Assembly (NCBI RefSeq): GCF_003334315.1
Contig: NZ_QOWR01000013.1
Origin: Escherichia coli
GTDB taxonomy: Bacteria; Pseudomonadota; Gammaproteobacteria; Enterobacterales; Enterobacteriaceae
Length of the DNA stretch: 64,000 nucleotides
Reading direction: 5' to 3' (one strand)
Of the stretch, positions 60,503-60,579 are shown piece by piece; position 1 is the first letter of the stretch, and each line of letters opens with the position of its first letter. Both the position numbers and the translations under genes were made by a program. The notes beneath the pieces were generated by a model. The model worked only from the letters and a program-made list of their open reading frames with translations. It did no database searches and was not told the origin of the DNA.

Positions 60503-60579
60503 CGCGGGGTGGAGCAGCCTGGTAGCTCGTCGGGCTCATAACCCGAAGGTCGTCGGTTCAAATCCGGCCCCCGCAACCA
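60503..60579 (+). tRNA. metZ: initiator tRNA-fMet (single copy)
   Basis: CGCGGGGTGGAGCAGCCTGGTAGCTCGTCGGGCTCATAACCCGAAGGTCGTCGGTTCAAATCCGGCCCCCGCAACCA: CAT anticodon, C1-A72 mismatch and three G-C pairs in the anticodon stem, encoded CCA. Symbol is by position; K-12 has three tandem copies (metZ/W/V). Confidence 0.97.

Follow-up and report, generated by a model that had tools for sequence, protein, structure and literature searches.

Why does a stretch of Escherichia coli DNA carry a single initiator tRNA gene at a place where K-12 carries three in tandem? The stretch analysed here, 64,000 nucleotides long and called the window below, comes from a phylogroup-A-like E. coli, and it has one tRNA-Met gene between mltA and amiC. 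Two answers were offered in the original prediction, a genuine strain difference or a tandem repeat collapsed in the assembly. This either/or has proved sound, as both situations are encountered at the locus in public assemblies: the assembly of K-12 MC1061 provides a case of almost certain collapse, and that of K-12 C3026 fits a deletion.

The tRNA gene and its transcription unit

The window contains exactly one tRNA according to ARAGORN, a tRNA-Met (CAT) at 60503-60579 on the plus strand, and the full Rfam tRNA model RF00005 matches the same positions (61.4 bits, E = 3e-12). Several of its features are characteristic of initiators. The 1:72 pair of the acceptor stem, flagged by cmscan as non-standard, is C1xA72 (CGCGGGG...CCCCGCA-ACCA), which is of the initiator type, and the anticodon stem UCGGG/CCCGA encloses the loop CUCAUAA, with three consecutive G-C pairs adjoining the loop, whose importance in the initiator has been described (PMC3017606). 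The CCA 3' end is encoded in the gene. Base for base, the 77-nt gene equals K-12 metZ, metW and metV, and the G at position 46 is of the metZ/W/V type (tRNA-fMet1) and not of the K-12 metY type. Judged by its letters, the gene is a bacterial initiator tRNA gene of the tRNA-fMet1 isoacceptor, with anticodon CAU in a canonical cloverleaf. Its presence as a single 77-nt copy between mltA and amiC, as originally described, was confirmed by ARAGORN, Rfam and BLAST-match annotation.

The left flank is mltA, encoding murein transglycosylase A (59197-60294, minus strand). On the right is amiC, encoding N-acetylmuramoyl-L-alanine amidase (60653-61906, minus strand), which is convergent with the tRNA gene and sits inside the listed ORF 60653-61996. 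Both flanking genes were placed by BLAST-match annotation and by transfer of coordinates from GF124.3, a near-identical relative in which a locus of 24,001 bp can be aligned 1:1 to window positions 40000-64000. A TTG-initiated ORF of 508 amino acids that crosses the tRNA on the opposite strand (59197-60723, minus strand) was rejected as a gene, being an over-extended mltA, the true mltA ending at 60294. In the relative RCAD0514, mltA is annotated as frameshifted by a 1-nt deletion in a C run, equivalent to window position 59817, and this frameshift looks like a homopolymer sequencing error.

Upstream of the tRNA, a putative metZ-type promoter and short 5' leader occupy positions 60451-60502 (plus strand), recognised by identity over 123 nt with the sequence upstream of K-12 metZ. 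This region holds an A-tract (60451-60459), a -35-like TTGCAT (60462-60467), a -10-like TATAGT (60484-60489) and a G+C-rich discriminator, GCGCATCC; the assignment of the two hexamers is our own reading and should be taken as tentative. A scan for sigma-70 consensus sequences called no promoter upstream of the tRNA, because TTGCAT fits TTGACA at just 3 of 6 positions. In K-12, the promoter of the metZ region was mapped experimentally, according to PMC3017606, which cites Nagase 1988 for it, and mutations in or adjoining the -10 box reduce tRNA-fMet1 (PMC3017606). The claim that the gene has its own promoter therefore stands in part: the 123-nt identity with the region of a mapped promoter suggests that the upstream sequence functions as one, and the consensus scan gave it no support.

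The companion claim, that of an own terminator, was borne out. A terminator scan found an intrinsic terminator at 60586-60615 (plus strand), in which GAACACCC-TAAC-GGGTGTTT forms an 8-pair stem with a 4-nt loop (60586-60605) and TTTTGTTTCT provides the T run, and the whole matches the K-12 sequence 3' of metV. As written, the locus would constitute a complete and functional monocistronic initiator tRNA unit, from which a short monocistronic precursor would be transcribed from the metZ promoter and then trimmed at both ends.

In E. coli K-12, metZ, metW and metV are the tRNA-fMet1 genes, as reportedly described by Kenri et al. in 1994. The original prediction was right that K-12 has three tandem copies at this place: in MG1655 the starts of metZ, metW and metV are 110 bp apart (NC_000913.3, 2947387-2947683). 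In both the window and K-12 the locus lies between mltA and amiC, and the two agree in the 123 nt upstream, which hold the metZ promoter and leader, in the 77-nt tRNA, in the post-metV terminator and in the sequence downstream of it. Unlike K-12, however, the window has one gene and not three genes at a 110-bp period, and is without two tRNA copies and the two 33-nt spacers between the copies, ATTAAAATTTGATGAAGTAAAGCAGTACGGTGA and ATCAAATTTGATGAAGTAAAAGCAGTACGGTGA (220 bp). A fourth initiator tRNA gene, metY, specifies the same kind of tRNA elsewhere on the chromosome, in the nusA-infB operon region outside the window. In most strains other than K-12 the sequence of metY equals that of metZWV, and K-12 metY has A46 instead of G46 (bioRxiv 10.64898/2026.04.16.719103).

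When the window is aligned with the two-copy locus of NT1F31 and the three-copy locus of K-12, the flanks agree at every position and the gaps are of exactly 110 and 220 columns, such that, relative to K-12, the window has lost exactly two units of 110 bp. The junction of this loss lies within 60501-60583, an interval made of GA, the tRNA and ATTA that is common to the first and the last repeat units; it is thus internal to the repeat, whole units are lost and the flanks are unchanged. Because the loss is of exact whole units, we infer that a genuine recent deletion, if this is what occurred, would have proceeded by unequal homologous recombination or replication slippage between direct repeats of 77-94 nt, removing two 110-bp units. 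Such a repeat-mediated event would leave exactly the junction seen here, in which a single tRNA stands between the leader of metZ and the trailer of metV. This junction does not separate deletion from collapse, as collapse predicts the same result; both readings predict the same letters, and the sequence alone does not distinguish them.

Copy number and age of the one-copy state

The forms of the array were counted in 5,426 complete E. coli genomes with the help of queries to which only one form corresponds over the full length. The intact one-copy form was present in 109 genomes (2.0%; 277-nt one-copy query, E<=1e-100) and the two-copy form in 116 (2.1%; 387-nt query, E<=1e-165), while a query for the spacer junction matched 5,195 of the 5,426 genomes, with a median of two junctions (three copies) and a maximum of five (about six copies). 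The gene and the locus are known, and 2% of public complete assemblies already show the one-copy state, among them the window's close relatives GF124.3, S30 and HS30-1. Over the 277-nt test stretch, 44 of the 109 one-copy genomes equal the window. The array thus varies in number, with two copies in 116 genomes and four to about six in others, and this variation speaks for a deletion.

Two simpler counts were discarded. Coverage of a 901-bp query yielded 226 genomes, and these mix one- and two-copy loci, as pieces of two-copy loci are joined; the one- and two-copy forms add up to 225, which is consistent with the 226 genomes in which most of the one-copy query is covered. Similarly, the 231 genomes with no spacer junction could not be equated with one copy, intact one-copy loci numbering only 109, and the remaining 122 junction-less genomes include disrupted or rearranged loci such as that of ST648. 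In ST648 (NZ_CP008697.1, 2900-5401) there is no tRNA directly 3' of the metZ promoter region; instead, one finds a phosphoglycerate dehydrogenase gene, a gene for a KpsF/GutQ isomerase and a frameshifted gene for a MalY/PatB protein, and the tRNA locus has here either acquired an island or been rearranged.

When the window locus was rewritten with three copies and queried together with 2.5 kb of its flanks to the left and to the right, at least 60 complete genomes matched this synthetic sequence perfectly and in one piece (5,297 of 5,297 nt). The haplotype of the window therefore normally has three copies, and the one-copy state has appeared in it without flanking divergence. These data bear heavily on the idea that a single copy is ancestral or typical of the lineage, in which case the lineage of the window would never have had three copies and the K-12 triplet would be derived. 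The bare fact of one copy is what this idea has in its favour; against it are the median of three copies in the 5,426 genomes, the three copies in at least 60 genomes whose 5-kb flanks are identical to those of the window, and the scattering of the one-copy genomes over lineages, with flank identities from 98.2% to 100%. We consider it very improbable.

For window positions 40000-64000 we compared eleven near-identical genomes, of which three have one copy, three have two copies and five have three. The window differs from each of them at 4 to 12 sites over 24 kb, whatever the copy number of the relative; it has three private SNPs in this region and otherwise the core haplotype. The sole informative SNP (46964) groups two one-copy with two two-copy genomes and places the window outside this group. 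Clade inheritance of the contracted state was not observed among the nearest relatives, in a test that is weak, having one informative site and relatives chosen partly by copy number. Given the three-copy identical haplotypes and this SNP pattern, the one-copy state is derived and very recent; that it shows no visible inheritance within a clade counts against a genuine deletion. In the comparison with related genomes proposed in the original prediction, copy number thus does not follow SNP relatedness.

One of the private SNPs (47699) falls in codon 117 of fucP, where CAC (His) in the window corresponds to TAC (Tyr) in 11 of 11 nearest relatives; the remaining private SNPs, 40086 and 40587, are synonymous changes in ppnN. 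The fucP His allele (Y117H) is common in other E. coli lineages. Ten contigs compared with the window for this allele showed 92-238 mismatches over 21 kb, none of them being close, and the difference at codon 117 may represent a small recombination patch or a reversion. At the other end of the window, positions 1-25000 had no perfect match among the 5,426 complete genomes, so that the window does not come from any of them.

Contraction of other tRNA arrays and clustering by project

Three further arrays, glyVXY, leuQPV and argQZYV-serV, resemble metZWV in their architecture, with identical tRNAs of 76-87 nt separated by spacers of 28-36 nt (62-198 nt in argQZYV). They also resemble it in having contracted forms in public assemblies, often in those in which metZWV is contracted. 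They differ from it in that their tRNAs are different, their loci are unlinked and their one-copy frequencies are not the same. The longest exact repeats are of similar length, 94 nt in metZWV, 93 nt in glyVXY and 89 nt in leuQPV. Among the 5,426 assemblies, glyVXY has one copy in 15 (0.3%) and two copies in 81, and leuQPV, where K-12 has leuQ, leuP and leuV, has one copy in 425 (7.8%). With a one-copy rate of 2.0%, metZWV lies between the two and is unexceptional. The suggestion that metZWV is about 7 times more prone to contraction than glyVXY (109 versus 15), as a sign of initiator-specific selection, was withdrawn in view of the leuQPV control with its 425 one-copy assemblies. A further point against a genuine deletion is therefore that one-copy calls are no more frequent at metZWV than at leuQPV, an array of matched architecture, and that the frequencies give no sign of selection specific to the initiator. 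The one-copy leuQPV calls may be in part typical of lineages and in part technical. The AVS wastewater series is heavily represented among them and in the list of two-copy glyVXY assemblies, but not so in the one-copy metZWV list.

Contractions at these unlinked arrays co-occur. At least 9 one-copy metZWV assemblies also have a reduced glyVXY, compared with 1.9 expected (P~1e-4), and in the 60 one-copy leuQPV assemblies listed (60 of 425), metZWV is down to one copy in 18, compared with 1.2 expected (P~2e-17). We could identify 87 of the 109 one-copy metZWV assemblies by name. Another contracted array is present in at least 23 of these 87 (26%), compared with a baseline of 9.6% or less, and about three quarters have no second contraction among the matches listed. 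Moreover, about 62 of the 87 belong to multi-member sequencing-project clusters, which span several lineages: 11 in the GF chicken-meat project, 10 in the WP/STN wastewater project, 6 in CP0672xx-3xx, 4 in STK/STS, and 3 each in TUM, Pap, CE, AR and CP0756xx. Such clustering could in principle come from the handling of strains and not from software.

The clearest individual case is the "complete" assembly of K-12 MC1061 (NZ_CP195014.1), in which metZWV has 1 of 3 copies, glyVXY 1 of 3, leuQPV 1 of 3 and argQZYV 2 of 4. As four independent deletions in one laboratory strain are not credible, this fourfold contraction is almost certainly technical. OV2, from the same submission, has the same pattern of contraction at the met, gly and leu arrays. 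Two of the nearest one-copy relatives of the window are also affected at a second array, glyVXY being down to 2 copies in GF124.3 and leuQPV down to 1 in HS30-1.

Other assemblies are contracted at metZWV in a locus-specific manner. K-12 C3026 has one metZWV copy, although the K-12 reference has three, and its glyVXY (3) and argQZYV-serV (4+1) arrays are intact; it was not among the 100%-identity rows listed for one-copy leuQPV. This pattern fits a real deletion at metZWV, and such locus-specific assemblies make genuine contraction there plausible. The arg array is likewise intact (4) in the one-copy assembly of S30. HS30-1, whose arg array is intact, had been regarded as a further clean locus-specific case and was withdrawn as such, its leuQPV being one-copy. 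The spacer structure of argQZYV is itself variable among close relatives, start-to-start spacings being about 275/274/274 in GF124.3 and S30 and 275/139/275 in K-12 and HS30-1.

Collapse, deletion and initiator tRNA dosage

Together, the co-occurrence of unlinked contractions, the clustering by project and a haplotype that elsewhere carries three copies tilt the evidence, moderately, to collapse. With a probability of roughly 0.55, we favour the reading that an array of three copies was collapsed during assembly, and that more than one copy is probably present in the organism. According to this reading, the assembler would have merged three 110-bp units into one while keeping the metZ leader and the metV trailer. 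The source assembly of the window would then presumably resemble those that are prone to collapse; ARAGORN detected no other tandem tRNA array in the 64-kb window. Collapse would also need a specific kind of pipeline, since a repeat of 94 nt should not defeat long reads of any kind, nor 127-mers taken from 150-nt reads.

To the genuine recent deletion introduced above we give somewhat less than an even chance. The clustering of one-copy calls by project and their co-occurrence with contractions at unlinked arrays weigh against it. What is known of initiator tRNA genes, in turn, indicates that a deletion would be tolerated. The level of initiator tRNA tracks gene number, and K-12 from which all of metZWV has been deleted is viable, though it is cold-sensitive, has a growth defect and initiates with lower fidelity (PMC3017606; PMC11480407). 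[quoted passage not shown]

In engineered K-12 strains, growth rate responds to this gene dosage in a nutrient-dependent manner, and the fidelity of initiation is affected as well. If the deletion in the window is real, the strain would have two initiator tRNA genes, the present one and metY, compared with four, i.e., about half of the usual gene dosage. Such a strain would be expected to grow slightly more slowly in rich medium, possibly to gain in poor medium, and to initiate translation with somewhat lower fidelity. One may go further and speculate that the one-copy state is a real and recurrent natural polymorphism of E. coli, tolerated or favoured by selection in nutrient-poor niches, in which contraction of the array would lower the dosage of initiator tRNA as competitions between engineered strains predict. 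We regard this extension as unlikely.

For the window itself the matter is of little consequence, as the change of two units, in a textbook gene, amounts to a trivial polymorphism if it is not an artefact. The consequences are broader for the use of public genomes. Counts of tRNA genes in tandem arrays that are taken from assemblies, even from "complete" RefSeq ones, are unreliable and often too low, and where tRNA adaptation indices or initiator tRNA dosage are derived from assemblies, such loci need to be checked against the reads.

Two additional features were observed in the window. In the tcdA-mltA intergenic region, positions 59033-59075 (minus strand) match the Rfam family of the ES036 (CssrF) sRNA, with 46.5 bits compared with a gathering score of 37.6. 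At 17066-17217 there is a short remnant of a CRISPR-type array, with a period of 61, 2.5 copies and a repeat like that of E. coli type I-E; in this region some close relatives have about 11.5 kb more DNA, including cas3 and casA, and others match the window in one piece.
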